Shown in pieces: positions 3,503 through 60,897 of a DNA stretch of 64,000 bases (its first letter is position 1; every line of letters begins with the position of its first letter). Position numbers and translations under genes: made by a program. The DNA is from Acidimicrobiia bacterium. Its GTDB lineage: Bacteria > Actinomycetota > Acidimicrobiia > Spongiisociales > JAENVV01. Under the pieces are notes generated by a model. The model was not told the DNA's origin. It ran no database searches and worked only from the letters and a program-made list of their open reading frames with translations. The stretch covers positions 22,549 to 86,548 of the forward strand of contig JBFGJH010000004.1 of the NCBI GenBank assembly GCA_041577335.1, written 5' to 3'.

Positions 3503-5233
3503 ATGACGACAACCGTAGGCAGCATCATTCATCCCGAGGGCCGGCACGTCATCGAGCCGACTACCCATGAGCAGATCGATGTCGCCATCGCCGCGCTTCA
3601 GGACAACAAGCAGCGTTGGCTGAATCTATCCATCGAGGACCGCATCTTTCACCTCGAGCAAACGATGGCAAACACCTTGGCAGTCTCCGAGCGATGGGTG
3701 GAAGCAGCTTGCGAAGCCAAGGGCATCGATTTCGATGCTGCGGTGGCCGGTGAGGAGTGGTCATCTGGCCCGTATCTCCTCATTCGCAATGCTCGTTTGC
3801 TGCGCGACTCATTGAGAGCGCTCGCAGATGGCCGCAAACCCGAACTGCCGGCGGTTTCGACGCGGCCGGACGGTCAGGTAGTCGCCAAGGTCTTTCCGAC
3901 CGACCTTTATGACCAGGCCGTCTTGAACGGGTTCGTGGGCGAAGTATGGATGCAGCCCGGTGTCACACCCGGCAATCTCGCCAGCACCCAGGCGGTGGCT
4001 TACGACAGCCTGCCTGAGGCCGCCGTCGGGCTGGTGCTCGGTGCCGGCAACATTTCCTCCATCGCGCCAATGGATGCACTCACGATGCTCTTCACCAAGA
4101 AACACGTGGCGCTCCTGAAACTCAACCCTGTCAATGAGTACCTCGGTCCCTTCATTGCTGAGGCCTTGGCTTCGCTCATCGAGGAAGGCTTCGTGCGGAT
4201 CATCTACGGCGGCGTCGAGGCCGGCCACTATGCCTGTGTCCACGATGGGGTAGATACGATTCACGTCACTGGGGCAGACAAGACCTACTACTCGATCCTA
4301 TTCGGCGACGGGGAGGAAGGCGAGGCTCGCCGTATGCGGGACGAGCCGCTCCTCACCAAGCCCGTGTCTGCCGAGTTGGGCAATGTCACTCCGGTGATCG
4401 TGGTGCCAGGTCCGTGGACCACAGCCGACATCGAGTATCAGGCGAAGAACCTCGCCGGGATGCTGACCCACAACGCCGGCTTCAACTGCATTGCGACGCG
4501 GGTGTTGCTCACTCACGGACACTGGAAGCATCGTGAAGCCCTCCTGTCAGCAATCGGGGACACGCTGACTGCAACTCCAACCCGTCCCGCCTACTACCCC
4601 GGAGCCGAAGAACGACTCGCCAGATTCGTCGAGGCGCATCCCGAAGCGCGCCGCTACGGCAACGGAGTCGCAGCCGACTGGACTTTCATCACCGATCTCG
4701 ACGAGAACGAAGAAGACCTGTGCTTTTCCGTAGAGCCCTTCGCAGGGATCTTCGCCGAAGCTCCTTTGGATGCTCCCCGGTCGGTGCCGGAATTCATCGA
4801 GCAGGCCGTCGAGTTCTGCAACAGCAAGCTGTGGGGAACACTGGCCGCCACCTTGATTGTGCACCCCGAATCGCTGAAGGACCCAGCCATCGCCGACGCC
4901 GTCGAAGATGCCATCGCCGGGCTCCGGTATGGAACGGTCACCGTGAATGCCTGGTCCGGCATCGGGTACCTGTTGGTTTCGACCACCTGGGGGGCATACC
5001 CCGGCCACACCCGATCGGAAATCGGCTCCGGCCTCGGCGTTGTGCACAACACCTATCTGTTCGATCAGGCCCAGAAGTCAGTGGTGCGAGCGCCATTCAA
5101 GTCGTACCCCAAACCGTTGTGGTTCGCCGAAAACAAACAAACTCACAATGTGGCCCGATATCTCACCCAGTTCGAAGCGGATCCGCAGCCTTGGAAGCTG
5201 CTTCCTGTGTTCGGGGCTGCCCTCGCTGGATGA
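3503..5233 (+). CDS. Aldehyde dehydrogenase family protein
   Basis: ATG at 3503 is preceded by GAGGGGAAG. ALDH-like motifs: ELGNVTPVIVVPGPW and NAGFNCIATRVLL (catalytic Cys region). 576 aa. Divergent from the CHAT gene. Confidence 0.75.
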   Translation: MTTTVGSIIHPEGRHVIEPTTHEQIDVAIAALQDNKQRWLNLSIEDRIFHLEQTMANTLAVSERWVEAACEAKGIDFDAAVAGEEWSSGPYLLIRNARLLRDSLRALADGRKPELPAVSTRPDGQVVAKVFPTDLYDQAVLNGFVGEVWMQPGVTPGNLASTQAVAYDSLPEAAVGLVLGAGNISSIAPMDALTMLFTKKHVALLKLNPVNEYLGPFIAEALASLIEEGFVRIIYGGVEAGHYACVHDGVDTIHVTGADKTYYSILFGDGEEGEARRMRDEPLLTKPVSAELGNVTPVIVVPGPWTTADIEYQAKNLAGMLTHNAGFNCIATRVLLTHGHWKHREALLSAIGDTLTATPTRPAYYPGAEERLARFVEAHPEARRYGNGVAADWTFITDLDENEEDLCFSVEPFAGIFAEAPLDAPRSVPEFIEQAVEFCNSKLWGTLAATLIVHPESLKDPAIADAVEDAIAGLRYGTVTVNAWSGIGYLLVSTTWGAYPGHTRSEIGSGLGVVHNTYLFDQAQKSVVRAPFKSYPKPLWFAENKQTHNVARYLTQFEADPQPWKLLPVFGAALAG

Positions 5234-5270: not shown

Positions 5271-6119
5271 ATGACGATGAAACACGGTGTGGTGATCTTC
5301 CCAACCGATAAGGCCATCCAGCCCGTCGAGCTGGCACAGGCCGCCGAGGACCGGGGCTTTGAGTCACTCTGGTTCCCGGAGCACTCGCACATTCCTGCGT
5401 CGCGTCGAACGCCATGGGGTGGCCGTAAGGACGCAGACGACCTGCCAGAAGAGTATTGGCGCTTGCACGACCAGTTCGTCGCCTTGTCTGCGGCCGCTGC
5501 GGTCACGTCCACGATCCGGCTCGGAACTGGCATCACGCTGGTGGTGCAGCGCGACCCATTCTGGTTGGCCAAGCAGGTGGCGTCGTTGGATGTCATCTCC
5601 AACGGCCGGTTCATCTTCGGTGTGGGTTTTGGGTGGAATGTCGAGGAAGCCGAAGACCATGGGATCAACTTCAAGAAACGCCATCGGATCGTTGACGAGA
5701 TGTTGAGCGCCATGAAGCTGATCTGGACAGAGGACGAGCCTGAGTTCCACGGCGAATTCGTGGACTTCGACCGTCTGTGGGCCTGGCCCAAGCCGGTCCA
5801 GCAGCCGCACCCCCCGATCGTGTTTGGGACCGGTACCGGTCCCTTGGGGACCAAAGCGGTGATTGCTCATGCCGATGGCTGGATGCCCCTGCGGTTGTCC
5901 CGCAGCTACGAAGAGGAGATCGCCGCCATGCGCAAGGCATTGGCGGCGGCGGGCCGCGACCCAGAAGAGCTCGAGATCACGATCTTCTACGCCAAGCCTG
6001 ACGAGGATCTGCTCTCCGAATTCCGCAAGCTCGGCGTCGCCAGAGTCATCTTCTCGCTCCCGCCGGCCGGTCGTGAGGTTGTGATCCCCAAGCTCGACGA
6101 GTTGGCCCGGCTCAGCTGA
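5271..6119 (+). CDS. LLM class (luciferase-like) F420-dependent oxidoreductase
   Basis: MKHGVVIFPTDKAIQPVELAQAAEDRGFESLWFPEHSHIP is a typical TIM-barrel LLM N-terminus. 282 aa. RBS TAGGGGATGA before the ATG. Confidence 0.85.
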   Translation: MTMKHGVVIFPTDKAIQPVELAQAAEDRGFESLWFPEHSHIPASRRTPWGGRKDADDLPEEYWRLHDQFVALSAAAAVTSTIRLGTGITLVVQRDPFWLAKQVASLDVISNGRFIFGVGFGWNVEEAEDHGINFKKRHRIVDEMLSAMKLIWTEDEPEFHGEFVDFDRLWAWPKPVQQPHPPIVFGTGTGPLGTKAVIAHADGWMPLRLSRSYEEEIAAMRKALAAAGRDPEELEITIFYAKPDEDLLSEFRKLGVARVIFSLPPAGREVVIPKLDELARLS

Positions 6120-10889: not shown

Positions 10890-11513
10890 GTGCGAAATCT
10901 CGCGTTGATCGCATCCATTGTCCTGATCGTCGCGGCCTGTGGCACGGAGGCATCGACTCCAACGGTCGATGCGGCTGCCCAGCAAACCAGTGTGGTCACG
11001 TCCGCTCCCGCGGCCACGACTAGTCAGCCGCCGGCTACCGAAATGACAATGGATAGCACGATGCACGACGACGCGGATCACGAGGAGCCAGCCGACCACG
11101 AAGAGGAACCGGCGAACCACGACGACGAGGCCGATCACGAGGAGAGTCTGGAAACGCCCGATCGTGACATGACGATCATCATGAATGAGTTCGCCTTTGA
11201 GCCCGACTCGATCACGGTCGCTGCCGGCGAAACAGTTCGCTTTGTAGTCAGTAATGAAGGCGCCATCGAGCATGAATTCAGGCTGACGACCAAACATTCC
11301 GCACAAGAGCACATTGAAGCCGGCCACGAGGGCCATGACGACGAGGCCGCCTCGACCGACCACGGCCACAAAGAGGTGCTGCTTCTTGTTGCCGCCGGCG
11401 AAACCGCGGACATAATCGTCACCTTTGACGACGCCGATGAGTTCGACGTCGTTGCCTGCCTTCTGCCCGGTCACTACGAGGCTGGAATGCTCGCCGAGTT
11501 CGCTATCGAATAG
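10890..11513 (+). CDS. Lipoprotein with His/Asp/Glu-rich linker and a C-terminal cupredoxin (type-1 copper) domain
   Basis: GTG start at 10890 after AAGGAG. Lipobox LIVAACGT. Acidic His-rich stretch HDDADHEEPADHEEEPANHDDEADHEE. Blue-copper ligand pattern ...IEHEF... and VACLLPGHYEAGM (Cys-X2-P-X-His-X4-Met). Confidence 0.7.
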   Translation: MRNLALIASIVLIVAACGTEASTPTVDAAAQQTSVVTSAPAATTSQPPATEMTMDSTMHDDADHEEPADHEEEPANHDDEADHEESLETPDRDMTIIMNEFAFEPDSITVAAGETVRFVVSNEGAIEHEFRLTTKHSAQEHIEAGHEGHDDEAASTDHGHKEVLLLVAAGETADIIVTFDDADEFDVVACLLPGHYEAGMLAEFAIE

Positions 11514-39058: not shown

Positions 39059-39955
39059 TCAGCCACTCGGCGTTGCTTCCTGCCACACCCTGATGTAATC
39101 GACCGCGAACTCGGCGGGGAAGTCGGTGCCATCGGTAGGCCCCGCATATTCACCGCCGACCGCCAGATTGGCGATCAGGTACATGGGCTCTGCGGGTAGG
39201 TGATCGGCCTCGTGAAAGCTCCACACTTGGCGACCATCGACGAACCAGATCACTGCGTCCTCAGACCATTCGACGGCGAAGGTGTGCCATCCGTCGGCGA
39301 AGTTAGGGCCCGGCCAGCGATTGCCCTCGCTGCGGCTCTCTCCGGTCTCGTTGCGCCAATGAATGTGCGATCGGAATAGATGGGGATCCTGGCCCAGGAA
39401 TTCGAGGATGTCGATCTCCGGCTTGGAGTCGTGAGTTATCGGTAGCAGCCAGAACGCCGGCCAGAGCCCGGCACCGGCCGGGATGCGTGCGCGCATCTCC
39501 ACGTAGCCGAATTGGAATGCATAGCCAGGATCAGGTTCCTTGTCGTTCGTCGGGCGACCACTGCTGACCATCCCGCTGACGTACGGGAAGACTGCGTCGT
39601 CGAACCCCACGACGGGGCCGTGATCAGCAGTCAGGTGGAGGACCCCTTCGCTGACGGTGACTTGTTCGGGGACGTACCATTGCTGCTCATTGGTGGACAG
39701 GTTCGTGCACCCGTTGTCATCCCACCAGAAACAGGTTGCCCACACTTCTCGGTCGAGAATCTCTCCATCGAATTCGTCGCTGAACCGTAGGTCCCAGCGC
39801 AGCGCGTCTTGGCCCAAAGGCACAACGGGCTTCTCGCCACGGCGCAGCTCAAACGTCGGCCAGCCGAAGTTCTTCTCTGGGTATCTCAGTGGGAGCAACG
39901 CCAGCCCGAGCAGGAACAAGGCGGTGAGGGTGACCGCCACCGCCAACCTATGCAT
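39059..39955 (-). CDS. Secreted glycoside hydrolase family 16 (beta-glucanase/laminarinase-like)
   Basis: Signal peptide MHRLAVAVTLTALFLLGLALLP. GH16 catalytic motif EIDILEF (ExDxxE) and GLWPAFWLL. ATG at 39955. Confidence 0.8.
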   Translation of the reverse strand: MHRLAVAVTLTALFLLGLALLPLRYPEKNFGWPTFELRRGEKPVVPLGQDALRWDLRFSDEFDGEILDREVWATCFWWDDNGCTNLSTNEQQWYVPEQVTVSEGVLHLTADHGPVVGFDDAVFPYVSGMVSSGRPTNDKEPDPGYAFQFGYVEMRARIPAGAGLWPAFWLLPITHDSKPEIDILEFLGQDPHLFRSHIHWRNETGESRSEGNRWPGPNFADGWHTFAVEWSEDAVIWFVDGRQVWSFHEADHLPAEPMYLIANLAVGGEYAGPTDGTDFPAEFAVDYIRVWQEATPSG

Positions 39956-40970
39956 CACGGAACCCAATGAGCTTCTTCACGGCGGTCCGGGCAGCCGTGT
40001 CGACGCGCGTCACCGGCAGTCGCTCGAGTCGGTACTCGGCGTAGGGAATCGAGTGGGCGCCGAGGCGCTCTTTGAATTCGGCCAATCCTCGAGACGACCC
40101 GCTCTCTCCCATGTGGTAGGCAGCACACCCGGCGCGACAGGCGTCCTCGATCGCCCGTACCTGCAGCAGATACGATGCCTCCGTGCGACCCGACAACTCC
40201 TCGTCGACGACGCCCCGCGTGTAGTGGGCGTTGGCGCCCTGGGTCACGATGATGGCTGCCGCAGGTCGACCGTCGACCGACGCTATCCACAGTCGAAACG
40301 CTTCACCGAGTGCCTCGGCCATCCTCTGGAACTTGGCGAGCGGATCCCGCCTCCGTCCTCGCCACAGGGCCATGGCTCTGGGCTCGTTCTGCCGCCGTGC
40401 CCACCGCTCCAGAGACTGCTGGAACAGGGCGTAGAACACTTCGAGACCCTCGCCGTTCGTCGATCGACTCACCTCGACGCCGAGCCGGTCTGCTCGGTTG
40501 GCTCGCTTGCGAGCTCCTCGACTCATTCGATCGTTCCAGACCTCCTCGAACCCACCTCGGAGATCGATGACATGTGCACGGCGCTCGATCTCGAGTGCGA
40601 GATCGGCGGCTGCCTTCCAGGCGTCGGCATTCAGCGGGTTGGGACGCACCGAGAAGGCCAGGTTCCCGGCGCGCGAAACATCGCGAAGGACCGATTGCAC
40701 CAGCCCTCGGGTGAGGGGCTCGGAGCTGATCAGACCCCCCATGCCCCACGCCGGTGGCATCGACCACACACGGGTCATCGGACCCCTCGCCACCCCGACG
40801 GCCGGCAGAACAGCCGTTGTTCCAGAGGGAAATACATAAGCCCGGCTGGCATCGAAATACCGTCCCATCGCCGTGATGGCATCCACCCAGGCAGGGCTTT
40901 GGGACTCCAGATGGGCACGGTCGGCCGCCAGCACTTCTTGCCAGATTCCTCGCGGAGCGGGCGTGATCAC
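39948..40970 (-). CDS. FemAB-like / GNAT-fold acyltransferase (Acetyltransf_6 family; peptidyl or glycan N-acyl/aminoacyl transferase)
   Basis: The proposed start is GTG at 40970..40968, forming GTGA with the deacetylase stop. The C-terminal region AIIVTQGANAHYTRGVVDEE...YLLQVRAIEDACRAGCAAYHMGESGSSRGLAEFKERLGA is a typical FemAB/BioF2-like GNAT core. Confidence 0.6.
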   Translation of the reverse strand: MITPAPRGIWQEVLAADRAHLESQSPAWVDAITAMGRYFDASRAYVFPSGTTAVLPAVGVARGPMTRVWSMPPAWGMGGLISSEPLTRGLVQSVLRDVSRAGNLAFSVRPNPLNADAWKAAADLALEIERRAHVIDLRGGFEEVWNDRMSRGARKRANRADRLGVEVSRSTNGEGLEVFYALFQQSLERWARRQNEPRAMALWRGRRRDPLAKFQRMAEALGEAFRLWIASVDGRPAAAIIVTQGANAHYTRGVVDEELSGRTEASYLLQVRAIEDACRAGCAAYHMGESGSSRGLAEFKERLGAHSIPYAEYRLERLPVTRVDTAARTAVKKLIGFRDA

Positions 40971-41791
40971 CTCCACGATGAGCCTCCAGCCAGGCTCGCC
41001 GACATCTTCCGGTGCGCCGGCCTCTGGAGCGAACGCCCGAGTCGCCAGAGGTTCTCCTGGGCTCGACGGCCCCATTTGGGTCGCAGACCTCGGCCGCCGA
41101 TGGTGGCGATGAGGTCCTCGGCGCTGTAGTCGCCCTCCACGATCACACGCGGGATCTCGAGGCCCTCCGATAGGCCATCGCTCAGCGAATGATGGACCGA
41201 CACCGCCGATTCGAAGCCCGCTTCAACAACCGCACTGCGCACGGACCGATTGGAATAGCCATGGGGATAGGCGAAGCTGCGCACTGCTTGGCCGCTCGCC
41301 TCGCGGAGAACCGTACGTGGTGCCTGCACCTCGGATCCCAGTTGGCCCGGACGGAGCAAGTCGAGCATGGCGTGGCTGTGGCTGTGCGCACCGACTTCCA
41401 CGCCGCGATCGGCAAGCTGGGAGAGGTCATTCAGATCCAACATCGGAATTGTCCCTGCAGCACTGGACGCAAGCCAGCGGCTGGTTGAGCCGAGGTAGCC
41501 GGTAGTTATGTACAGCGTGACCGGGAATCCGCGCTTCTCGAGGGCTGGGAGGGCGTTGGCACCGAAGTCGGCAAAGCCGTCGTCGACCGTGATGATCACA
41601 GCCCGTGGTGGGAGCTTCCCGTGGGAGCGAACTCGATCGACAGCATCCGAGATCGTCAGGCCCTGGTAGCCCGCCGATACCAGCGCATCCAGGTGTGAGG
41701 CAAACACAGCCGGTGCAACGGTCCAACGCCGAAAACTCTCCGGCCCGCTGGACGCAACGCTGTGATACATCAGAACCGGCACGGCAACCAT
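40967..41791 (-). CDS. Polysaccharide deacetylase (CE4 / NodB family)
   Basis: PVLMYHSV and VIITVDDGFADF (NodB TFDDG-like). ATG at 41791. Confidence 0.8.
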   Translation of the reverse strand: MVAVPVLMYHSVASSGPESFRRWTVAPAVFASHLDALVSAGYQGLTISDAVDRVRSHGKLPPRAVIITVDDGFADFGANALPALEKRGFPVTLYITTGYLGSTSRWLASSAAGTIPMLDLNDLSQLADRGVEVGAHSHSHAMLDLLRPGQLGSEVQAPRTVLREASGQAVRSFAYPHGYSNRSVRSAVVEAGFESAVSVHHSLSDGLSEGLEIPRVIVEGDYSAEDLIATIGGRGLRPKWGRRAQENLWRLGRSLQRPAHRKMSASLAGGSSWR

Positions 41792-41802
41792 TCCCACAAC
41801 GG

Positions 41803-43041
41803 TCAACTCTCGGAGTCGCGATGGAGTGCTCGGCGTCCGCGAAGATAGGCGACCGGCCCAGCAACGAGACCGGCTAGCCGCGGTCCCATCGGCACGCCCA
41901 CGCGCGATTCCATGCCCGCCCCGTTGATCTGCGCCAGATGGCGAAGACCCGCCGGGATGCCCATGATCATCCTTGGCAGCAGCTCCGGGTGATCCACGGC
42001 GCATCGAGTCAGATAGGCACCAAGGCCGGTGCCGTATTGTCGTACCTGTCGCCGGAACCGATCCTTGTCCGGATCGTGATGGTGCCGCACCAATGCTGCC
42101 GGCTCATAGATCAGCGCGTGCCCTGCCAAGATCACGTCGAAGAACGCAGCCAGGTCGTCCCCACCCCGACCAGGACTTCCAGTCCCGAGGGCCCCATCGA
42201 AGCCACCGACGGCCCGCAGCGCTTGGGTTCGGAACGCCATATTGGCTCCTGATCCACATGCCCCGACCGCGTAGGGAAACAAGCCCGACTTCGGCCGGTT
42301 CTCAGCCAGGTCAAAGACCCGGCGCTCAAAGGCCTTGCCCAACCCGAGATGTTCGACGAGATACTGTGCTTCATGGTCGAGGCTGGCGGGATATATGAGG
42401 CCAGTGACGCACGCTGCATTGGGAAACTCAGCGAATGTTCGGGCTATGGCAGATAGCCAACCGACGTCCGGCACCACGTCGTCGTCGGTGAAGGCGACGA
42501 TGGGCGCTTCAACATATGGCAGCGCAGCATTGTGAGCGTTGGCCAGTCCCGGCGTGGTCTCGTGAACATATCGAACGGAACGACCCTTCACCGACGCCGA
42601 CTCCACCGTGCTGCGAGCAGATGGAGAGGCTGGATCGTTGTCGACAACGATCACCTCGAAATCACTGTGATCCTGGCGATCGAGCGCTGCCAGGCACGCC
42701 CCGAGTTGCTCGAGCCGGTCTCTCGTGGCGATGACCACTACGGCCGGCATCGGATCACCCTCGATTGCGGGGGCGGCCGATCTTGGCCCACCAGGTACTC
42801 GGTTTCGCACCTGGTCCACTGCGTCCTCTACCTGATCCCCGCTCAGCCCTTCCGGGGGCAGGTCCAGCGCAACCTGACCGAGCGGGCCCCGATCGTCGAA
42901 CACCAGTATCTGGACCCTCCCATACTGGCGACCGTCCGGGGTGCTGGCGGGTGTCACGGGCACTGCCGGCTTCGAGATGGCTCGATCCACGAGCAACACG
43001 GGGCGGTATTCGCCGCTGTCGTTCTCCTGCTTGCTGCTCAT
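41803..43041 (-). CDS. Glycosyltransferase family 2
   Basis: VVVIATRDRLEQLGACLAALDRQDHSDFEVIVVDNDP and FTDDDVVPD (DxD). ATG at 43041 after a GGAG-containing leader. First gene of the envelope polysaccharide operon. Confidence 0.8.
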   Translation of the reverse strand: MSSKQENDSGEYRPVLLVDRAISKPAVPVTPASTPDGRQYGRVQILVFDDRGPLGQVALDLPPEGLSGDQVEDAVDQVRNRVPGGPRSAAPAIEGDPMPAVVVIATRDRLEQLGACLAALDRQDHSDFEVIVVDNDPASPSARSTVESASVKGRSVRYVHETTPGLANAHNAALPYVEAPIVAFTDDDVVPDVGWLSAIARTFAEFPNAACVTGLIYPASLDHEAQYLVEHLGLGKAFERRVFDLAENRPKSGLFPYAVGACGSGANMAFRTQALRAVGGFDGALGTGSPGRGGDDLAAFFDVILAGHALIYEPAALVRHHHDPDKDRFRRQVRQYGTGLGAYLTRCAVDHPELLPRMIMGIPAGLRHLAQINGAGMESRVGVPMGPRLAGLVAGPVAYLRGRRALHRDSES

Positions 43042-43251
43042 GCGATGGCGAATCCAGATTGCTGTGAACGGGCAATCCGAAAACCATGTTGGATTGACCG
43101 CGTGACGATGCGCCCCCGAGCATCCATTATCCCACCCTGTCTCCCTGTCAGATGGCAGCAGATTGGCTACCGATGCGCCTCCACTGCACATCTTCGTCGC
43201 CCAGTCGGGCGATCGTCAACTGCTCGACGGCGGGAAGATTCGGCGCGGGAC

Positions 43252-52214: not shown

Positions 52215-52910
52215 CTACAGCCTATCGGCGACCAGCGTCCTTCCGGCGATCGATTCGAGAACACGACGATCGGTGACGCGGATCAAGCGATAGCCCGTCG
52301 TAATCCCGCCTCGGTCGCGGAGCTCGCCAAGTGCCTCATTGACGGTCTGGCGGCTCGCTCCGAGAAGACCTGCAACGCTCGACTGCGAGAGGTGCACTTC
52401 CCCACGGGCGTCTGCCTCGTCGAGCATCAACTCGGCGACTTGCTCTTTGACGGTTCGATGCATGAGCCCGAGCACCCGGCGCTGGGTCGATTCCAGCTGG
52501 GAAAGGCCCGCCACCAACCACCGCAGCGTGATCACGGGCCGCTGTACGAGCACGGGGAGAAGCTTGTCGCGTTCGAACTCGAACGCCGTCACCCGGTCAA
52601 TTGCCCGGGCCGATGACATATACGGCTCAGCCCGGAACATCGCGATATCGCCGAGAACGTTGCCCTCGCCGGCCCGGCCAACCACGCGCCGCCCATTCTT
52701 CGGACCTCGGTAGAGCTCTACCTGTCCGCTCACGATCAGATAGGCGTGCGTCGATGGGGATCCCTCTTTGAAGAGGTGTGTTCCCGGGTACTTCTCGACG
52801 ATCGAACCGGTTCGACTAAGAGCGTCGAGGTCGGATGGCCTGAGCGGGAGATAGTCGGTGCGCCCGAACGTCTTGGCGAGCCAGGCGAAGTGTTTCTGAT
52901 CTTGGTCCAT
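52215..52910 (-). CDS. Crp/Fnr family transcriptional regulator
   Basis: cNMP-binding fold (GTHLFKEGSPSTHAYLIVSGQVELY) and C-terminal HTH (VHLSQSSVAGLLGASRQTVNEALGELRDRGGI). ATG at 52910; the upstream extension to 53699 is rejected. Confidence 0.8.
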   Translation of the reverse strand: MDQDQKHFAWLAKTFGRTDYLPLRPSDLDALSRTGSIVEKYPGTHLFKEGSPSTHAYLIVSGQVELYRGPKNGRRVVGRAGEGNVLGDIAMFRAEPYMSSARAIDRVTAFEFERDKLLPVLVQRPVITLRWLVAGLSQLESTQRRVLGLMHRTVKEQVAELMLDEADARGEVHLSQSSVAGLLGASRQTVNEALGELRDRGGITTGYRLIRVTDRRVLESIAGRTLVADRL

Positions 52911-53272
52911 CAAATTGCCTTCCTGCCGACAATCAACACAGCGGACCGGGATTGTGTTCCCTGCCTCAGCGCCTGACCCGCCCGAGAGGGAACGACGGCG
53001 GTCAGCGCATTGGGCGGTTTCCGCTCGCGCGCCGGCTGACCGGCCCACTGCCCAGCATCGACGCCAGCGATCGCTGGATCGCGCTGGCGACGCTCGCTTG
53101 CGGGTGGAACGCTGTCGTGGCGAGTTCGAGCTGTGAACAGGGAGCCTGCGACTGGTTGTGACAGTCACGGTTGCCATTCCTGACCGCCCAGAGGGGTCGT
53201 CCTCGGGCCGAAGGCCTCTGGGCGGAGACCGCGAAGCGGGAGATGCTGGGCGATGGTCAATGACCGGAGTGG
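52911..53272. promoter_or_regulatory. Divergent intergenic region between the Crp/Fnr regulator and the alpha/beta-hydrolase gene, containing palindromes (AACACA-N14-TGTGTT at 52935..52959; GTGACAGTCAC at 53158..53168)
   Basis: Inverted repeats seen directly. A TGTGA half-site is also present at 53132. Spacing does not match canonical CRP (TGTGA-N6-TCACA) or FNR (TTGAT-N4-ATCAA) sites. Confidence 0.3.
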
Positions 53273-54322
53273 GTGATGCGGGCGCATTGGTCCGAAAAAG
53301 TAGTGGCTTCGCTCGATGAACGAGCGACCGTGATCCAAACCCGCCATGGCGAGGTGCAACTGGCGAGGATCGGCGCGGGCCCGCCCGTGCTCGTGTCTCA
53401 CGGCGGACCGGGAGGGTTCGACCTCGGGCTGGCATGGAGCCAACACCTCCGCCTCGGTGGATGCGAAGTGCTTGCCGTGTCTCGCCCCGGGTACCTTCGG
53501 ACGCCTCTTGCCTCCGGCCGAAGCCCGGCGAGCCAGGCCGACCTCTTTGCGGCTCTTCTCGAAGAGCTTCACATCGAACGGGCAGCCGTATTCGGGTTCT
53601 CATCGGGTGGACCGGCTGCGATTCACTTCGCCGCTCGCTACCCCGATCGCGCGACCGCCCTGTTCCTCGATACGGCGATTCTGGCGCCGTTTGAGCCACC
53701 GATAGGTGCGCTCAGGCGAGCCACCTACGAATCCAGCTTCGCGGTGTGGCTTGCCTATCAGGTGGCGACGCGGAATCCGTCCTTGGCGACGAGACTGATG
53801 GTTGATGGCGTGTCGCAAGGCCTCGACAAGGAGCAGCTAGGCCTAGCGGTCGACTGGATCACTTCCGACCCAGCCCGGATCCAGAGCGTGCAACAACAAT
53901 GGACCTCCATTGCCCCGCAGAGGTACCGCCAGCCAGGATGGACCAACGACAAGGCCAACGAGCGCAGCCTCGAACCACTGCCCTTCGCCGATGTCGCGGC
54001 ACCGACAGTGATCGCCTTTGGCACCAACGACGCCATCGTCCCCGAGGAACACGGGGTCAACGCCGCCAACAAGATCGCAGGTGCTGAGCTGATGTTCGTC
54101 GAAGGAGGCCACCACCTGTTGTCTGTAAGCCGCAATTATGGCCCCGTTGCGCAGCGTCAGCTGGAGCTCCTTCGGGGCGAGCGACGAGCCATAACATCGT
54201 CCTGGCGCACTCCGGCACCATCTCCGGCTGCGCACCCACCACCTACGGGCCCGCAGACCACGTCACCGGAGCCCAGTTGGCCGCCTTCCTCCATCTTGCC
54301 GTCGACTGAGTCTGAAGAGTGA
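53273..54322 (+). CDS. Alpha/beta hydrolase fold protein
   Basis: VLVSHGGPGGF (oxyanion HGG) and FGFSSGGPAA (GxSxG nucleophile elbow). C-terminal Pro/Ser-rich tail. Confidence 0.75.
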   Translation: MMRAHWSEKVVASLDERATVIQTRHGEVQLARIGAGPPVLVSHGGPGGFDLGLAWSQHLRLGGCEVLAVSRPGYLRTPLASGRSPASQADLFAALLEELHIERAAVFGFSSGGPAAIHFAARYPDRATALFLDTAILAPFEPPIGALRRATYESSFAVWLAYQVATRNPSLATRLMVDGVSQGLDKEQLGLAVDWITSDPARIQSVQQQWTSIAPQRYRQPGWTNDKANERSLEPLPFADVAAPTVIAFGTNDAIVPEEHGVNAANKIAGAELMFVEGGHHLLSVSRNYGPVAQRQLELLRGERRAITSSWRTPAPSPAAHPPPTGPQTTSPEPSWPPSSILPSTESEE

Positions 54323-55581: not shown

Positions 55582-56067
55582 ATGGAACCCATTGAGCAAA
55601 GGGTCATCGACGCACTCGACGCCCTTGACGCTGACTACACCGTCATGCCGTGCGATCCGGAGCTGGCAGACACCGCAGCGTTTTGTGAGCACTACAGCGT
55701 GGCGTTGGAGGATTCTGCCAACGCCATTCTCGTGGCCTCGAAGAAACCGGCCGGCCAGCTCGCATTGTGCCTCGTTCTGGCTACCCAGCGCCTCGACGTG
55801 AACCGGCGCGTACGCGACGCCATGGCGGTCAAAAAGCTGAGTTTCGCATCGCCCGAGATGACGGCTGAGGCGACCGGCATGGTCATCGGCGGTGTTACAC
55901 CGTTCGGTCTCGACGGCATCACGACATTGGTGGATCGGGCCGTTGTTGCTCGGCAGCGGGTGATCATCGGAGGTGGCAGCCGGTCGATGAAGATCGAACT
56001 CGATCCTGAGGTCTTCGGTCGTGCCCCCGGGATCGAAGTCACCGACATCGCGCAGCCCCCAGCGTGA
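55582..56067 (+). CDS. YbaK/EbsC-type aminoacyl-tRNA deacylase (Cys-tRNA(Pro) editing domain protein)
   Basis: AILVASKKPAGQLALCLVLATQRLDVNRRVRDAMAVKKLSFASPEMTAEATGMVIGGVTPFG is the YbaK fold signature. Confidence 0.8.
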   Translation: MEPIEQRVIDALDALDADYTVMPCDPELADTAAFCEHYSVALEDSANAILVASKKPAGQLALCLVLATQRLDVNRRVRDAMAVKKLSFASPEMTAEATGMVIGGVTPFGLDGITTLVDRAVVARQRVIIGGGSRSMKIELDPEVFGRAPGIEVTDIAQPPA

Positions 56068-56109
56068 GCATCTTCTGACCAAGCCCCGACCGGGACTACC
56101 ATCGCTCCG

Positions 56110-56622
56110 ATGCCTGCCCTGACAGGACCATTCACAGTCTCGATCTTGCTGCTCTTGCTCGCCGGCGCGTTCAAGATCTGGCAGCCGACTGCTACGTCCA
56201 ATGCGATGTCTGCGACAGGGCTTCCTGGCAACGACGGCTTCACCCGTCTCCTCGGAGCGGCAGAGATCGCCATCGGATTGGCTGCGCTGCTGGTCGGCGG
56301 CTTGATGCCGGCGCTTCTCATGGGCGGGGCGTACGTCGGGTTCACCGCGTTCGTGGCGGTCGCCCTCCGGCGAGAATTGGCGATCCAGTCGTGCGGGTGT
56401 TTCGGAAAGGCTGACACTCCACCATCGTGGGCACACGTTGCCGTGAACGCGAGTGCCGCCGCGGTAGCACTCATCTTCGGACTCACTGCCACCGAGCCGG
56501 TCGGCGTCTATCTCACCCAAGCCGATGCCGGCACACTGGTGCTCGCCATCCTCGTAGCCACCTACCTCGTCTACGTGCTTCTCGCCGTGTTGCCTGCCGC
56601 CCCGACCGCGAGGCGCGCATGA
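56110..56622 (+). CDS. MauE-like (methylamine utilisation protein MauE / DoxX-related) membrane protein
   Basis: Four TM helices and the diagnostic CGCFG motif (ELAIQSCGCFGKAD). Confidence 0.7.
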   Translation: MPALTGPFTVSILLLLLAGAFKIWQPTATSNAMSATGLPGNDGFTRLLGAAEIAIGLAALLVGGLMPALLMGGAYVGFTAFVAVALRRELAIQSCGCFGKADTPPSWAHVAVNASAAAVALIFGLTATEPVGVYLTQADAGTLVLAILVATYLVYVLLAVLPAAPTARRA

Positions 56623-57997
56623 GCACGTGGCTGGTGGAGCGGTCGAGCCGCTTCCTCGAGAAGCGGGTGAGTCGACGCGGGTTCCTCGAGCGGGTGGCAC
56701 TGGCGGGATCCGCCCTCGTAACGGCGCCGCTGACGTTTGCCCTCAAGCCCATATCGGCTTTCCAAGCCGTGTGCAGCTGTTCCGGACAGTCGTGTACGTG
56801 CAGCTCTTTGTGCTGCGATGGATATACCGAATTCTGCTGCACCATCTACGGAACCAACACGTGCCCGCCGGGCTCGAGAGCAGCCGGATGGTGGAAGGTC
56901 GACGGCTCTGGCTTCTGCGGAGGCAAGAACCGCTACTACCTCGATTGCAACGCCTCGTGCAACGGCTGCGGTTCGGGAGCAGCGGTCTCTGCTCCAACTC
57001 CTGCGCCGACTGCAACTGCGGCTGTGCACAAGGCTCGTGCGGAAACCGCAAAGCATGCTGCACCAGTTTCCGCTACGGGCAATGTGGCAACGACGTCGCC
57101 TGCCTCGGTCCCATCATCTGCCGGGTCGTCACTTGCACCGCTCCCTGGGTGTTCGACGCGACCTGTACCACCACCAGCGCTACGGATAACAACACCCGCT
57201 ACCACGATCGTCCCTGCCTGCACGAGAAGACTGCCTATCCCGAGTTCCCGGCCGTGTTCGTCCCTGACGAGCGCCGCTGGTACCTAGCCGACAGCCTGGA
57301 TAGCCCAACGATCAGCTCCTTCGACTACGGGACCGTCGGAGAAACACCGGTCACTGGTGACTGGGATGGCGACGGCACACGAACCACCGGCGTTGTGAGG
57401 AACAGCCGGTTTGGACGATTCGGCGATGGAACCATGTGGTGGAGGCTCCGGAATAGCGTTGGTGAGGGCGAGCCGAGCATGATCTTCTCATACGGGGAGC
57501 CTGGTGACATTCCCATAACCGGAGATTGGAACGGTGACGGCGAAGACACCATCGGAGTCATTTCAGGCAATGTATGGAAGCTGCGCCTTGCCAACAGCGG
57601 CGGAGACCCTGACATCGAATTCACGTTCGGCGAGCCCGGCGACGTGTTCGTCACCGGCGACTGGAACGGCGACGGCGTCGACACACCTGGGTACATCCGC
57701 GGCAACCGGTTGTTTCTCCGCAACTCGAATTCGTCGGGAAGCGCGGACATCGAGTTTGACTACGGCAGCGGAACGAGCGTCGGCCGCTACGTCATGGGCG
57801 ATTGGAACGGCGACGGCACCGACACACCGGCATTCGTCGACGGCACCACATGGTCGATCCGCAACACGAACGCCGCCGGAATCGCCGACGTGACACTTGC
57901 AATGCCGACCACCGGCGTTCCTCTGGCCTGGAGCCCTGGCTCGGTCTCCGTTGGTCCGACCTTGCCGGCACCCGACGGAAGCGCTCGGCTGGCGTGA
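56619..57997 (+). CDS. Tat-signal, hyper-Cys-rich secreted protein with four C-terminal FG-GAP-like repeats; reading frame shifts by -1 near 56975-56995 (frameshift, sequencing error or pseudogene)
   Basis: ATG 56619 overlaps the MauE stop (ATGA). Tat leader MSTWLVERSSRFLEKRVSRRGFLERVALAGSALVTAPLTFA. Cys-rich segment CSCSGQSCTCSSLCCDGYTEFCCTIYGTNTCPPGS...DCNASCNGCG in frame 0. It continues CSNSCADCNCGCAQGSCGNRKACC...ICRVVTCTAPW in frame -1, where GC3 stays high while frame 0 loses GC3 bias. Four repeats follow, of type F(D/T)YGE.GD.P.TGDWNGDG.DT.G. The stop at 57997 overlaps the next gene's start. Confidence 0.6.
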
Positions 57998-58746
57998 CGG
58001 CGCTGGTCGTGACCCTCATTCTGATCGTCTTCCTGCTTGGCGTGCTCGTGGCCGGTGTTCTTCGCAGCCATGCAGAGATCATGCGCACGCTCCACGACAT
58101 GGGCATGCGCGAAGACGGCACATTCGCCGAGCAGCCCCGCAACGCACCGCTCACGCAGCCGGGTGTCTCCCCTCCCCGAACGTCGGATGCACCCGGCGCC
58201 GACATCACCGGGACGAAACCGGACGGATCGCCCCGCCAAATAAGTGTGGTCGGGACCGATCACACGACGTTGCTGGCTTTTCTCTCCACGGGCTGTTCAA
58301 CCTGCAAGGTGTTCTGGCAAGAATTCGGGAGACGACGCGATCTCCACCTGCCCGGCACCGACACTCGCATGGTCATCGTCACGAAGAGCGCCAATGCCGA
58401 ATCGGCATCCCAACTCGCCTCGCTCGCGCCCGCCCACTGGCCGCTGGTGATGTCGACTGAAGCGTGGGATCACTACGGCGTACCCGTCTCGCCATACTTC
58501 ATCCTCGTTGACGGGCCCAATGGGCAGATTGTTGGTGAAGGAGCCGGCACCAACTGGAAACAGGTTCATTCTTTGCTCGGACAAGCCGTCGCTGACGCAG
58601 GGCTCTTTACGGGTGCCGGACGGAACGCAGGCACCGCTACCGGCGCCGAGCGGGAGGCCCGGGCCGATCAAGAGCTGCGAGCTGCCGGCATAGAGCCGGG
58701 CGATCCCAGCCTCTACACCACCGAAGCACCGGAGTCGGGGCAGTGA
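57994..58746 (+). CDS. MauD/TlpA-like membrane-anchored thioredoxin-fold thiol-disulfide oxidoreductase
   Basis: GTG 57994 overlaps TGA 57995-57997 (GTGA). N-terminal TM VTALVVTLILIVFLLGVLVAGVL. Redox motif LAFLSTGCSTCKVFW (CxxC). Gly/Ala-rich C-terminal tail. Confidence 0.75.
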   Translation: MTALVVTLILIVFLLGVLVAGVLRSHAEIMRTLHDMGMREDGTFAEQPRNAPLTQPGVSPPRTSDAPGADITGTKPDGSPRQISVVGTDHTTLLAFLSTGCSTCKVFWQEFGRRRDLHLPGTDTRMVIVTKSANAESASQLASLAPAHWPLVMSTEAWDHYGVPVSPYFILVDGPNGQIVGEGAGTNWKQVHSLLGQAVADAGLFTGAGRNAGTATGAEREARADQELRAAGIEPGDPSLYTTEAPESGQ

Positions 58747-58823
58747 CCTTGCCGTTCATCGTCGGGCTCACCGTCGGGATCAGCGCGGCCATCCGGTCGA
58801 GCTGGTCCCCTTGAGGAGAATCG

Positions 58824-59432
58824 ATGCTTTCGAGCATCACCCCGCTCGGCGAGCGGGGACGGCACAACCGATGGAGCATCACCGCTGCGTGGTACTTGGC
58901 CGGATCAATAGCTGGTGGAATCACCTTCGGGTTGGTGATGGGGGCGCTCGGTGAGGCTTTGGCAACTGTGGCAGAGCCGATGCCGACCGAGGCGGTGAGC
59001 GTGTTTGTGGCGAGCGCGCTGGCTCTGGCCTTGTTGTTCGACACTGGTGTCCTTGGCGAGCGAGTGCCATCGATCCACCGACAGGTGAACGAAGACTGGC
59101 TGGACCTCTATCGCAACTGGGTATACGGCGGGGGCTTTGGATGGCAACTCGGTTTGGGTGTCATCACGATCGTGCCGACGGCCGGCACGTACGTCACGTG
59201 GCTCATGGCCCTTGCGACGGGGCAACTCTGGATGGGGGCTGTCATCGGTGGCGTTTTTGGACTGGCCAGAGGGCTGCCGATTCTGGCGGTCGCCTCTGCC
59301 ACCGATCCACACCGGCTCCGCCGGTTCCACCGAAGGATGGCCTCTGCCGCTCCTGCGGCTCATCGGGCCGTCATTGCGGTCACGGCCGTCGCCCTCGCAG
59401 GATCGTTCGCGGTCATGATCGGCGGCGGGTGA
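58824..59432 (+). CDS. Hypothetical polytopic membrane protein (5-6 TM, no Cys)
   Basis: ATG at 58824. Hydrophobic helices WSITAAWYLAGSIAGGITFGLVMGALG, VSVFVASALALALLF, etc. Confidence 0.5.
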   Translation: MLSSITPLGERGRHNRWSITAAWYLAGSIAGGITFGLVMGALGEALATVAEPMPTEAVSVFVASALALALLFDTGVLGERVPSIHRQVNEDWLDLYRNWVYGGGFGWQLGLGVITIVPTAGTYVTWLMALATGQLWMGAVIGGVFGLARGLPILAVASATDPHRLRRFHRRMASAAPAAHRAVIAVTAVALAGSFAVMIGGG

Positions 59433-59902
59433 TGGCTCAGCTCACCGACCAGGGGATCACCGTGGAGGTTCCGAACGGGTGGGAGGTCGATTTCTACCGA
59501 AGGACGCCCGACGCCATCGCGCTGTCGAACACCAAGCCCGAGAGCACCTACACCGTCGTTCACCTCGCCAACTGGCCGCTTCCTGCCGAGAGGGGCGATT
59601 TCGGCGGCGGGGCAGTGGAATTGATGCGGCGGTCTGATCTCTTGATCATCCTGTTTGAATATGGCCCCGAGCATGTCGGTTCTGCCCTTTTTGCTTCCGA
59701 GGGTGTCCCGTGGCCCCTCGATCCCGATGCATTTGCGGCAAACCAGATGCAGCGTCCGCTCCCCGGCCAGGGTGGCCTTCAACAGTTCTTCACGGTCAGC
59801 CGGCGTCCGTTTTGTCTCTACGTGGTGCTCGGCAGTCTCAGTGATGCCGATTCGCTCGTAGCGGAGGCGAACGAAGTTCTGGCAGGAGTCAGCATCGCAT
59901 GA
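59432..59902 (+). CDS. Hypothetical cytoplasmic protein (156 aa)
   Basis: ATG 59432 overlaps the previous TGA by 1 nt. There is no signal peptide. A degenerate paralogous fragment of its C-terminus lies at ~61990-62060. Confidence 0.5.
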   Translation: MAQLTDQGITVEVPNGWEVDFYRRTPDAIALSNTKPESTYTVVHLANWPLPAERGDFGGGAVELMRRSDLLIILFEYGPEHVGSALFASEGVPWPLDPDAFAANQMQRPLPGQGGLQQFFTVSRRPFCLYVVLGSLSDADSLVAEANEVLAGVSIA

Positions 59903-60897
59903 GGCGCCGCATTGCCTTGATGGTTGCGCTCGTCGCGGCTATGACGATCGCAGCCCCCGCCGGATCAGCGCAGAGCTGGCCGCTCGATGCGTTCATCGAT
60001 GACGACAACAGCGTTCACGAATCGGCAATCGATGTGATCGCCAACCTCGGAATAACGAGCGGCTGCAATCCGCCCGACTTCGACGAATTCTGTCCCGGAG
60101 ACAGCGTCACTCGCGGGCAAATGGCCGCCTTCCTGCGGCGAAGCATCGGTTTGCCGACCAGCAGTACCGACGCCTTCACTGACGACAACTCGTCAGTTTT
60201 CGAAGCAGACATCAACGCCATCGCCGCCGCCGGAATCACGACCGGATGCAACGCGGCAGGTACCGAGTTCTGTCCGGGTGGGACGGTGACGAGAGGTCAG
60301 ATGGCCGCCTTCCTACGGAGAGCAGCCGGAGTGCCGTCGAGCGCAACCGACTTCTTCACCGACGACGACTCGTCCATATTCGAAGCAGACATCAACGCCA
60401 TCGCCGCCGCCGGGATCACGACCGGCTGCGACGCAGCAGACAGCGAATTCTGCCCGAGCGAGGAGGTGACTCGGGCTCAGATGGCCACATTCCTGGTCAG
60501 AGCTTTTGACCTCGTCGCCGGTCCGCCCGAACCCGCCCTCGACTTCGTCCTGGCCTTCACTGGAATCTGCAACGACGACCAGCTGGTCTGCGAAGACGAG
60601 ATCTACTTTCCCGCCGACACTCCGTGGCAATTCGAGGAGGGTTGGTTCTATGTTCTTCCCTTCGAGCCCGGAGACCAGGAAGATTTCGAGTCGGTGGGCA
60701 CGAGCTTCCGTGTGTGGCTCGATGGGGCGTCCATCCCGATGAGTCCCCAGGCCACCGAGACGGTGGGCGGAGAGTCGATTCGCCGGTTCACGGGGACACT
60801 GCCTCGCCTGCAGCCCGGCACTCACTCACTCGTCGGCGAATGGTGGTGGGCAGGAGAACCGCTATATCGAAGCGAGCTCACCGTCTACGTTCCCTAG
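59899..60897 (+). CDS. Secreted cell-surface protein with three SLH-like repeats plus a C-terminal domain (paralog of 25641..27161)
   Basis: ATGA overlap with the previous gene. Signal peptide MRRRIALMVALVAAMTIAAPAGSAQS. Three repeats F(I/T)DD(D/N)(N/S)SV(H/F)E(S/A)(A/D)I..IA..GIT.GC(N/D)....(E/D)FCPG.(S/T)VTRGQMAAFLRR. Confidence 0.7.
   Translation: MRRRIALMVALVAAMTIAAPAGSAQSWPLDAFIDDDNSVHESAIDVIANLGITSGCNPPDFDEFCPGDSVTRGQMAAFLRRSIGLPTSSTDAFTDDNSSVFEADINAIAAAGITTGCNAAGTEFCPGGTVTRGQMAAFLRRAAGVPSSATDFFTDDDSSIFEADINAIAAAGITTGCDAADSEFCPSEEVTRAQMATFLVRAFDLVAGPPEPALDFVLAFTGICNDDQLVCEDEIYFPADTPWQFEEGWFYVLPFEPGDQEDFESVGTSFRVWLDGASIPMSPQATETVGGESIRRFTGTLPRLQPGTHSLVGEWWWAGEPLYRSELTVYVP

Follow-up and report, generated by a model that had tools for sequence, protein, structure and literature searches.

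A gene encoding a cysteine-rich, exported protein lacks a single G between positions 56973 and 56974 of a 64,000-nucleotide stretch from the genome assembly of an Acidimicrobiia bacterium (GenBank GCA_041577335.1, contig JBFGJH010000004.1, positions 22,549 to 86,548 of the forward strand; the whole stretch is referred to here as the window). That the region represents a one-base deletion in a single gene, with no recoding involved, is close to certain. The segment 56619–57997 is one gene for a 459-residue protein consisting of a twin-arginine translocation (Tat) signal peptide, a domain with 28 cysteines and FG-GAP-like repeats, and the G has been lost in this window alone, from within the TGC codon of the conserved Cys119. 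As written, the sequence would be read out of frame after Gly118 up to a stop at 57285–57287, which would give a truncated product of 222 residues and uncouple the downstream genes. The lesion is private to this assembly; it is an error of consensus or assembly, or else a loss-of-function allele that arose very recently and dominated the sampled population.

Frame switch and site of the missing base

The original prediction, made from the letters of the window, placed an apparent −1 frameshift within 56950–57010, and a frame switch is present there as a determinate difference in sequence and not as a statistical signal. Frame 0 opens with the ATG at 56619, which overlaps the stop of the preceding MauE-like gene as ATGA (56619–56622), and translates as MSTWLVERSSRFLEKRVSRRGFLER...YYLDCNASCNGCGSG before passing into an Ala/Pro/Thr-rich run. 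Its GC content at third codon positions (GC3) is 0.70–0.85 until about 56940 and about 0.5 after that, up to the TAG at 57285–57287, so that translation and GC3 agree on the decay into a low-GC3 run ending at 57287 that had been described. The −1 frame, a stop-to-stop open reading frame (ORF) at 56558–57997, is junk until about 56970, then reads ...GSSGLCSNSCADCNCGCAQGSCGNRKACC... and continues through four GDW[ND]GDG repeats to the TGA at 57995–57997. Its GC3 of 0.74–0.85 from about 56940 to the end, together with its reading into FG-GAP-like repeats, bears out the protein-like character claimed for it after the switch. Coding signal and homology both lie in frame 0 over 56619–56973 and switch to the −1 frame at 56974, where they persist up to the stop at 57995–57997.

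The alignment with orthologues and near-identical contigs places the lesion exactly at 56973/56974, which is 2 to 12 bases upstream of the sequence GGGAGCAGCGG named in the original prediction. The window reads GGTT^CGGG in place of the GGTT[G]CGGG found in near-identical contigs and in the orthologue alignment (in longer form, GGTTCGGG in the deleted and GGTTGCGGG in the intact copies), the lost G being the second base of the TGC codon that specifies the near-invariant Cys119. Adding one G restores the reading from GGT TCG GGA GCA to GGT TGC GGG AGC. Where the relatives have ...SCNGCGCGSSGLCS... across the junction, SCNGCG-S-G is read from frame 0 of the window and SSGLCS from its −1 frame. 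Residue Cys119 is invariant in a 17-sequence alignment, and at least 90% of 115 orthologues have it. There is no homopolymer at the lost G and no run of five or more bases within 56900–57050, and, starting 2 bases downstream of the lesion, there is an inverted repeat of 7 bp (GGAGCAG...CTGCTCC). As written, frame 0 stops about 700 bases before the start of the next gene.

Near-identical contigs and alleles

The MauE-like protein encoded directly upstream is identical on seven other public contigs, three of which span the lesion site, namely L001 (NCBI GCA_041564755.1, JBFGPJ010000294.1), belonging to a metagenome-assembled genome (MAG), and two Logan assemblies, L002 (SRR29257371) and L003 (SRR29257472). 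These three were assembled independently, each is 99.89–99.94% identical to the window, and the sole gap in each alignment is the extra G at the site. The ORF is intact in all of them, with 459 aa in one reading frame, and in L001 it is called as one gene, the next gene overlapping its stop. Putting the G back leaves no difference between the window gene and that of L001 over the 1380 bases. The prediction of a single-base indel in one gene, be it an error or a genuine mutation, is supported by the one extra G of these 99.9%-identical contigs and by the orthologues, all of which are single ORFs.

The protein cluster formed at 90% identity comprises eight members, two of which are disrupted, at different sites (this window and the related strain contig L027, see below). 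Among the intact members, P0122, a further NCBI allele, differs by one residue, and P0124, P0125 and P0127 share about 90% identity. The broken state is matched by one record only, P0126, whose 282 aa correspond exactly to window positions 57149–57994, starting at an internal GTG in the −1 frame. It is located on an NCBI contig of 106,392 bases that is probably the window's own source record, in which the broken gene was called as its 3′ fragment; the gene caller's 282-aa fragment is thus a misleading product for what is probably this contig. No protein record represents the 5′ half of the broken gene in the protein collection, and the 222-aa frame-0 product was not found in that collection of 15 billion proteins. 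Exact look-ups of the 222-aa product, a 456-aa product and the 282-aa fragment (one 282-aa query began with V rather than M) matched no contig, and exact 40-mer scans for either allele in genome_contigs and metagenome_contigs found nothing.

Orthologues and selection

The two halves were joined conceptually and used as the query against a protein database, which yielded 2945 protein clusters at E ≤ 0.001 among 8000 candidates. The best 120 of the 2945 matches are all single proteins of 408–663 aa, mostly of 430–460 aa, and those named among them are Acidimicrobiia, Acidimicrobiales or Actinomycetota MAG proteins; the best match, P0001, exhibits 82% identity over 100% of the query. The alignment of orthologues, which had been put forward as the means of finding the indel, did locate it, with single ORFs of this length in 120 of the 120 listed orthologues. 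Two separate genes, the arrangement that the original prediction had named as contradicting it, were not seen in the orthologue alignments.

A relative of the gene is found in 531 GTDB species genomes. The 80 of these that were listed are nearly all Acidimicrobiia, and 78 of them carry an uninterrupted match; of the other two, one match is cut by a contig end and the other, in L034, is frameshifted elsewhere. L034 (MFD03551.bin.2.75) is a species-representative MAG with contig_ naming, in Nanopore style, and its frameshift lies at about 4019–4026 at a GGG run, the kind of site where errors in a long-read consensus typically arise. A MEGAHIT contig from a 96%-identical strain, L027 (ENA ERZ27296337), has an independent deletion of one base, GGAACCATG to GGAACATG (in wider context, GGAACATGTGG versus GGAACCATGTGG); the deletion is located at L027 2416/2417, equivalent to about 57433 in the window, and the gene was consequently called as a truncated protein of 287 aa (P0123). 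The frameshifts in the relatives therefore sit at positions other than the lesion of the window. Compared with L027, the gene has a ratio of nonsynonymous to synonymous substitution rates (dN/dS) of 0.05 as a whole, and three segments to either side of the lesions give 0.02, 0.045 and 0.12. By these values, the gene is under strong purifying selection on both sides of the lesion.

Alternative explanations and origin of the deletion

A programmed −1 ribosomal frameshift, or transcriptional slippage, would allow the full-length protein to be made from the sequence as written. The window shares with the known cases of dnaX and the IS3-family transposases the presence of two overlapping frames, each of them the only coding frame on its side of the site; furthermore, the −1 frame is open well upstream, from 56558, and its stop is coupled to the downstream gene. 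Unlike those cases, however, no slippery heptamer of the form X_XXY_YYZ occurs in 56558–57287, where both frames are open (the local sequence being GGT TCG GGA), and there is no A/T or other run on which slippage could take place. The 101 nt of 56975–57075 fold no better than their shuffles, with −38.2 kcal/mol for the sequence and −35.6 on average for the shuffles (z = −0.76) and a 7-bp hairpin only (pseudoknots not modelled). The shift is not conserved either, since near-identical strains and hundreds of orthologues use one frame and the relatives' frameshifts lie elsewhere, and a shift at the site would still replace the conserved Cys119. The missing recoding signals and the in-frame relatives effectively refute programmed frameshifting, which had been considered the less likely option from the beginning and to which we now attach next to no probability. 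The same minimal weight is given to two separate genes, one for a short Tat-exported cysteine-rich protein that ends at 57287 and one for an FG-GAP protein with a start of its own. The ORFs 56427..57287 and 56627..57997 do exist mechanically and the 282-aa 3′ fragment from the GTG at 57149 (P0126) was called, but the frame-0 tail after 56973 is non-coding in composition and without a homologue, and it is the −1 frame that carries on the conserved cysteine-rich domain. None of the orthologues is divided here, a signal peptide would be missing from the 3′ piece, and one confident fold spans the junction in the model of P0001, with a predicted local distance difference test (pLDDT) score above 90 over residues 61–150. 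The two-gene reading is refuted by the orthologue alignments.

As for the origin of the one-base deletion in a single gene, an artefact is favoured over a real allele. An assembly or consensus error, the organism keeping TGC and the G being dropped when the contig was built or polished, is judged slightly the better bet, given that the repaired gene matches the L001 copy at every base, that the population's other assemblies or alleles covering the site, four in number, are all intact, and that the lesion strikes a conserved cysteine in a gene with a dN/dS of 0.05 and without any other decay or change. The 7-bp inverted repeat lies 2 bases downstream, inverted repeats being error-prone contexts on some sequencing platforms, and frameshifts are seen in other assemblies of the gene family, such as that at the G-run of the Nanopore-style MAG L034. 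Several observations nevertheless count against the idea of a simple sequencing error. No homopolymer surrounds the lost G; 22 independent contigs, derived from several sequencing runs, showed no further indel in the roughly 12.9 kb of the window compared with them; a Viterbi scan for coding frames, home-made and crude in that it called the cysteine-rich region itself non-coding, found no other clear frameshift in the 64 kb; and the independent deletion of L027 in the same gene indicates that null alleles may circulate. A genuine, very recent loss-of-function mutation, by which the dominant strain would have a null allele, a protein truncated at residue 222 and probably lowered coupled expression downstream, is accordingly a serious, if not the preferred, candidate. 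An isolated deletion without a homopolymer on an otherwise clean contig would fit it, as would the separate one-base deletion in L027, with two of the eight members of the 90% cluster disrupted; on the other hand, this allele has no second record in the protein collection, co-occurring assemblies are intact without exception, and the gene, from a family under strong purifying selection, exhibits no further decay. An assembly riddled with indels was also considered and is ruled out by the comparison over about 12.9 kb and by the 64-kb scan.

The coupling of the downstream genes to the −1 frame stop had been taken to argue that the gene is functional in vivo. The coupling itself is found, as the GTG at 57994 overlaps the TGA at 57995–57997 and the same call was made in L001, but it does not demonstrate function: the preserved GTGA implies only that the lesion is very recent or artefactual and is no proof that the gene works in this strain. 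It is improbable that the deletion is both real and recurring, with independent losses of one base inactivating the Tat-exported cysteine-rich protein again and again in natural populations of Acidimicrobiia; were this the case, the coexistence of intact and null alleles would amount to on/off heterogeneity of a surface component.

The deletion is an ordinary one. It has in common with the assembly indels and young pseudogenes of MAG annotation a single-base deletion in a conserved ORF, halves in adjacent frames, intact relatives and a call of the 3′ fragment (P0126) only. Nothing substantive sets it apart, the only unusual features being the non-homopolymer context and the second, independent deletion in a related strain. 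It is therefore a quality flag and no discovery, and in annotation the locus should be entered as a single frameshifted ORF, or be repaired, and neither as two genes nor as a recoding site.

Organization of the operon

The gene is the second of a six-gene block at 56110–60897 on the forward strand, the members of which (MauE-like, cysteine-rich/FG-GAP-like, thioredoxin-like, DsbD_2, unknown and SLH) are mostly joined by ATGA or GTGA stop-start overlaps (Table 1). The model for MauD (TIGR02661) scores 14.2 bits (E 0.022) against the thioredoxin-like protein, far from its cut-off of 188.6, so that the protein does not qualify as a MauD equivalog. A block with the same order and gene sizes surrounds a 50%-identical orthologue at 5489–10127 of L028, a contig of 806 kb, in which Pfam assignments were obtained for MauE and, as a faint match, for SLH only. 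The operon is conserved and uncharacterised.

Table 1. Features of the cysteine-rich protein gene and its operon (positions in the window).
Feature	Position	Strand	Basis and remarks
MauE-like membrane protein, 170 aa	56110..56622	+	Pfam PF07291, E 1.7e-15, 57.9 bits versus cut-off 27; identical protein on 7 independent contigs
Cysteine-rich protein gene, 5′ part, frame 0	56619..56973	+	Codons 1–118 (Tat signal SRRGFLER, first half of cysteine-rich domain) and first base T of the Cys119 codon; high GC3, TIGR01409, residue-for-residue orthologue alignment
Lesion, one G missing	56973..56974	+	Extra G in L001, L002 and L003 is the only gap in each alignment
Cysteine-rich protein gene, 3′ part, −1 frame	56974..57997	+	Last base of codon 119 and codons 120–459 (second half of cysteine-rich domain, four GDW[ND]GDG repeats), TGA 57995–57997; GC3 0.74–0.85, 100% match to L001 after repair
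Out-of-frame tail as written	56974..57287	+	Ala/Pro/Thr-rich, premature TAG 57285–57287; low GC3
Thioredoxin-like protein, 250 aa, N-terminal membrane helix, CSTC at residue 101	57994..58746	+	GTG start overlaps −1 frame stop (GTGA); called in L001 and L008; identical on 5 contigs
DsbD_2/CcdA-like membrane protein, 202 aa	58824..59432	+	Pfam PF13386, E 9.3e-07, 29.4 bits versus cut-off 24.9
Unknown-family protein, 157 aa	59429..59902	+	GTG start overlaps preceding stop; no Pfam match; 144-aa gene at same place in L028
SLH-domain (cell-surface anchoring) protein, 332 aa, last of block	59899..60897	+	Pfam PF00395, E 1.4e-08; 329-aa gene with faint SLH match at same place in L028

Of the five independent Logan contigs that cover the downstream gene, four begin at 57655 or 57658, where the cysteine-rich protein gene has its repeat region, which suggests a branch in the assembly graph. 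A search of the gene revealed no exact repeat of at least 24 bases.

Other features of the window

A cupredoxin gene of the plastocyanin/azurin family is located at 10890–11513 on the forward strand, a stretch that the crude frame scan miscalled on the opposite strand. Three consecutive cell-envelope polysaccharide genes occupy 39948–43191 on the reverse strand and correspond to a GNAT/FemAB-like protein, a polysaccharide deacetylase and a family-2 glycosyltransferase; overlaps of 109 and 202 bases between their longest ORFs most likely result from the real starts lying further in. An open frame of 494 aa at 52215–53699, also on the reverse strand, contains Crp-type cyclic nucleotide-binding and helix-turn-helix domains in its last about 190 residues (304–483) only and a coding signal in its 3′ part of about 700 bases only, the real gene being probably one of about 230 aa.

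The intact protein and its possible relation to methylamine dehydrogenase maturation

The intact protein begins with a Tat signal, SRRGFLERVALAGSALVTAP, which combines a motif of the S/T-R-R-x-F-L-K type with a hydrophobic stretch and is recognized by TIGR01409 with 19.8 bits versus a cut-off of 16.7; Arg19 and Arg20 are invariant in 115 sequences. The 28 cysteines lie between residues 52 and 200, in a domain that gave no Pfam, NCBIfam or PDB sequence match, and Trp91, Trp92 and Trp177 are invariant in the set of 115 orthologues. The C-terminal half contains the four GDW[ND]GDG repeats and scores 18 bits with FG-GAP_3 (PF13517), below the cut-off of 26.9. The AlphaFold2 model of the full-length, 82%-identical P0001 has a pLDDT of 87. 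In a Foldseek search with the whole model, propeller matches dominate, including PVL lectin, TcB and integrin alpha propellers, at E of 2e-3 to 8e-2 and template modelling (TM) scores of 0.25–0.3. The protein may resemble the FG-GAP or integrin-alpha-like β-propellers, such as the Psathyrella velutina lectin, in its four repeats and in a predicted all-β fold with weak similarity (E about 2e-3), but differs from them in a profile score below the cut-off and in TM scores of only 0.25–0.3.

The arrangement of the operon resembles that of mauE-mauD-mauA in methylamine dehydrogenase clusters. Both comprise a MauE-family membrane protein and a membrane-anchored CxxC thioredoxin-like protein, here with a faint MauD match, and the present operon has a Tat-exported, very cysteine-rich protein between the two. 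In contrast to the light chain MauA, which has 12 cysteines, this protein has 28 and is fused to FG-GAP-like repeats. No gene for the heavy chain (mauB), for MauG or for amicyanin is adjacent in the block 55582–60897 (mauG not being searched exhaustively). The tryptophan tryptophylquinone cofactor of the light chain derives from two Trp residues, with MauG as the partner. In the comparison with MauA (PF02975), no Pfam match was obtained at an E of 1 or better, and the profile of the cysteine-rich domain matches nothing in the PDB down to an E of 10. Similarity to the methylamine dehydrogenase light chain was confined to 16 columns that hhalign aligned to 2bbk_L (NTCPPG..(A)GWW with TNCPPGTKLATASW) at a probability of 1.3%; by this weak alignment the segment of MauA with the cofactor tryptophan Trp57 lines up with the short NTCPPG...W motif of the cysteine-rich protein. 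Foldseek with a model of the domain alone ranks methylamine dehydrogenase light chains first, at E of 1.6 or worse, the model being poor (pLDDT 64) and the fold comparison correspondingly weak. The relation to the methylamine dehydrogenase light chain is a lead only. Homologues of mauE and mauD have also been described beside cysteine-rich precursors, in clusters of Streptomyces resembling those for peptides that are made on ribosomes and modified after translation (RiPPs; PMC7794033, a RiPP-mining paper).

That paper was all that came up when the literature was searched for MauE or MauD together with cysteine-rich proteins of actinobacteria, and no publication on this family was found. On the simplest interpretation, the protein would be exported and heavily disulfide-bonded, with its own thiol-redox helpers encoded in the same operon, and it may possibly be located at the cell surface, since a gene for an SLH protein is part of that operon. 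It is in the large, unnamed Acidimicrobiia family of the intact gene, rather than in the frameshift, that any biological interest lies.
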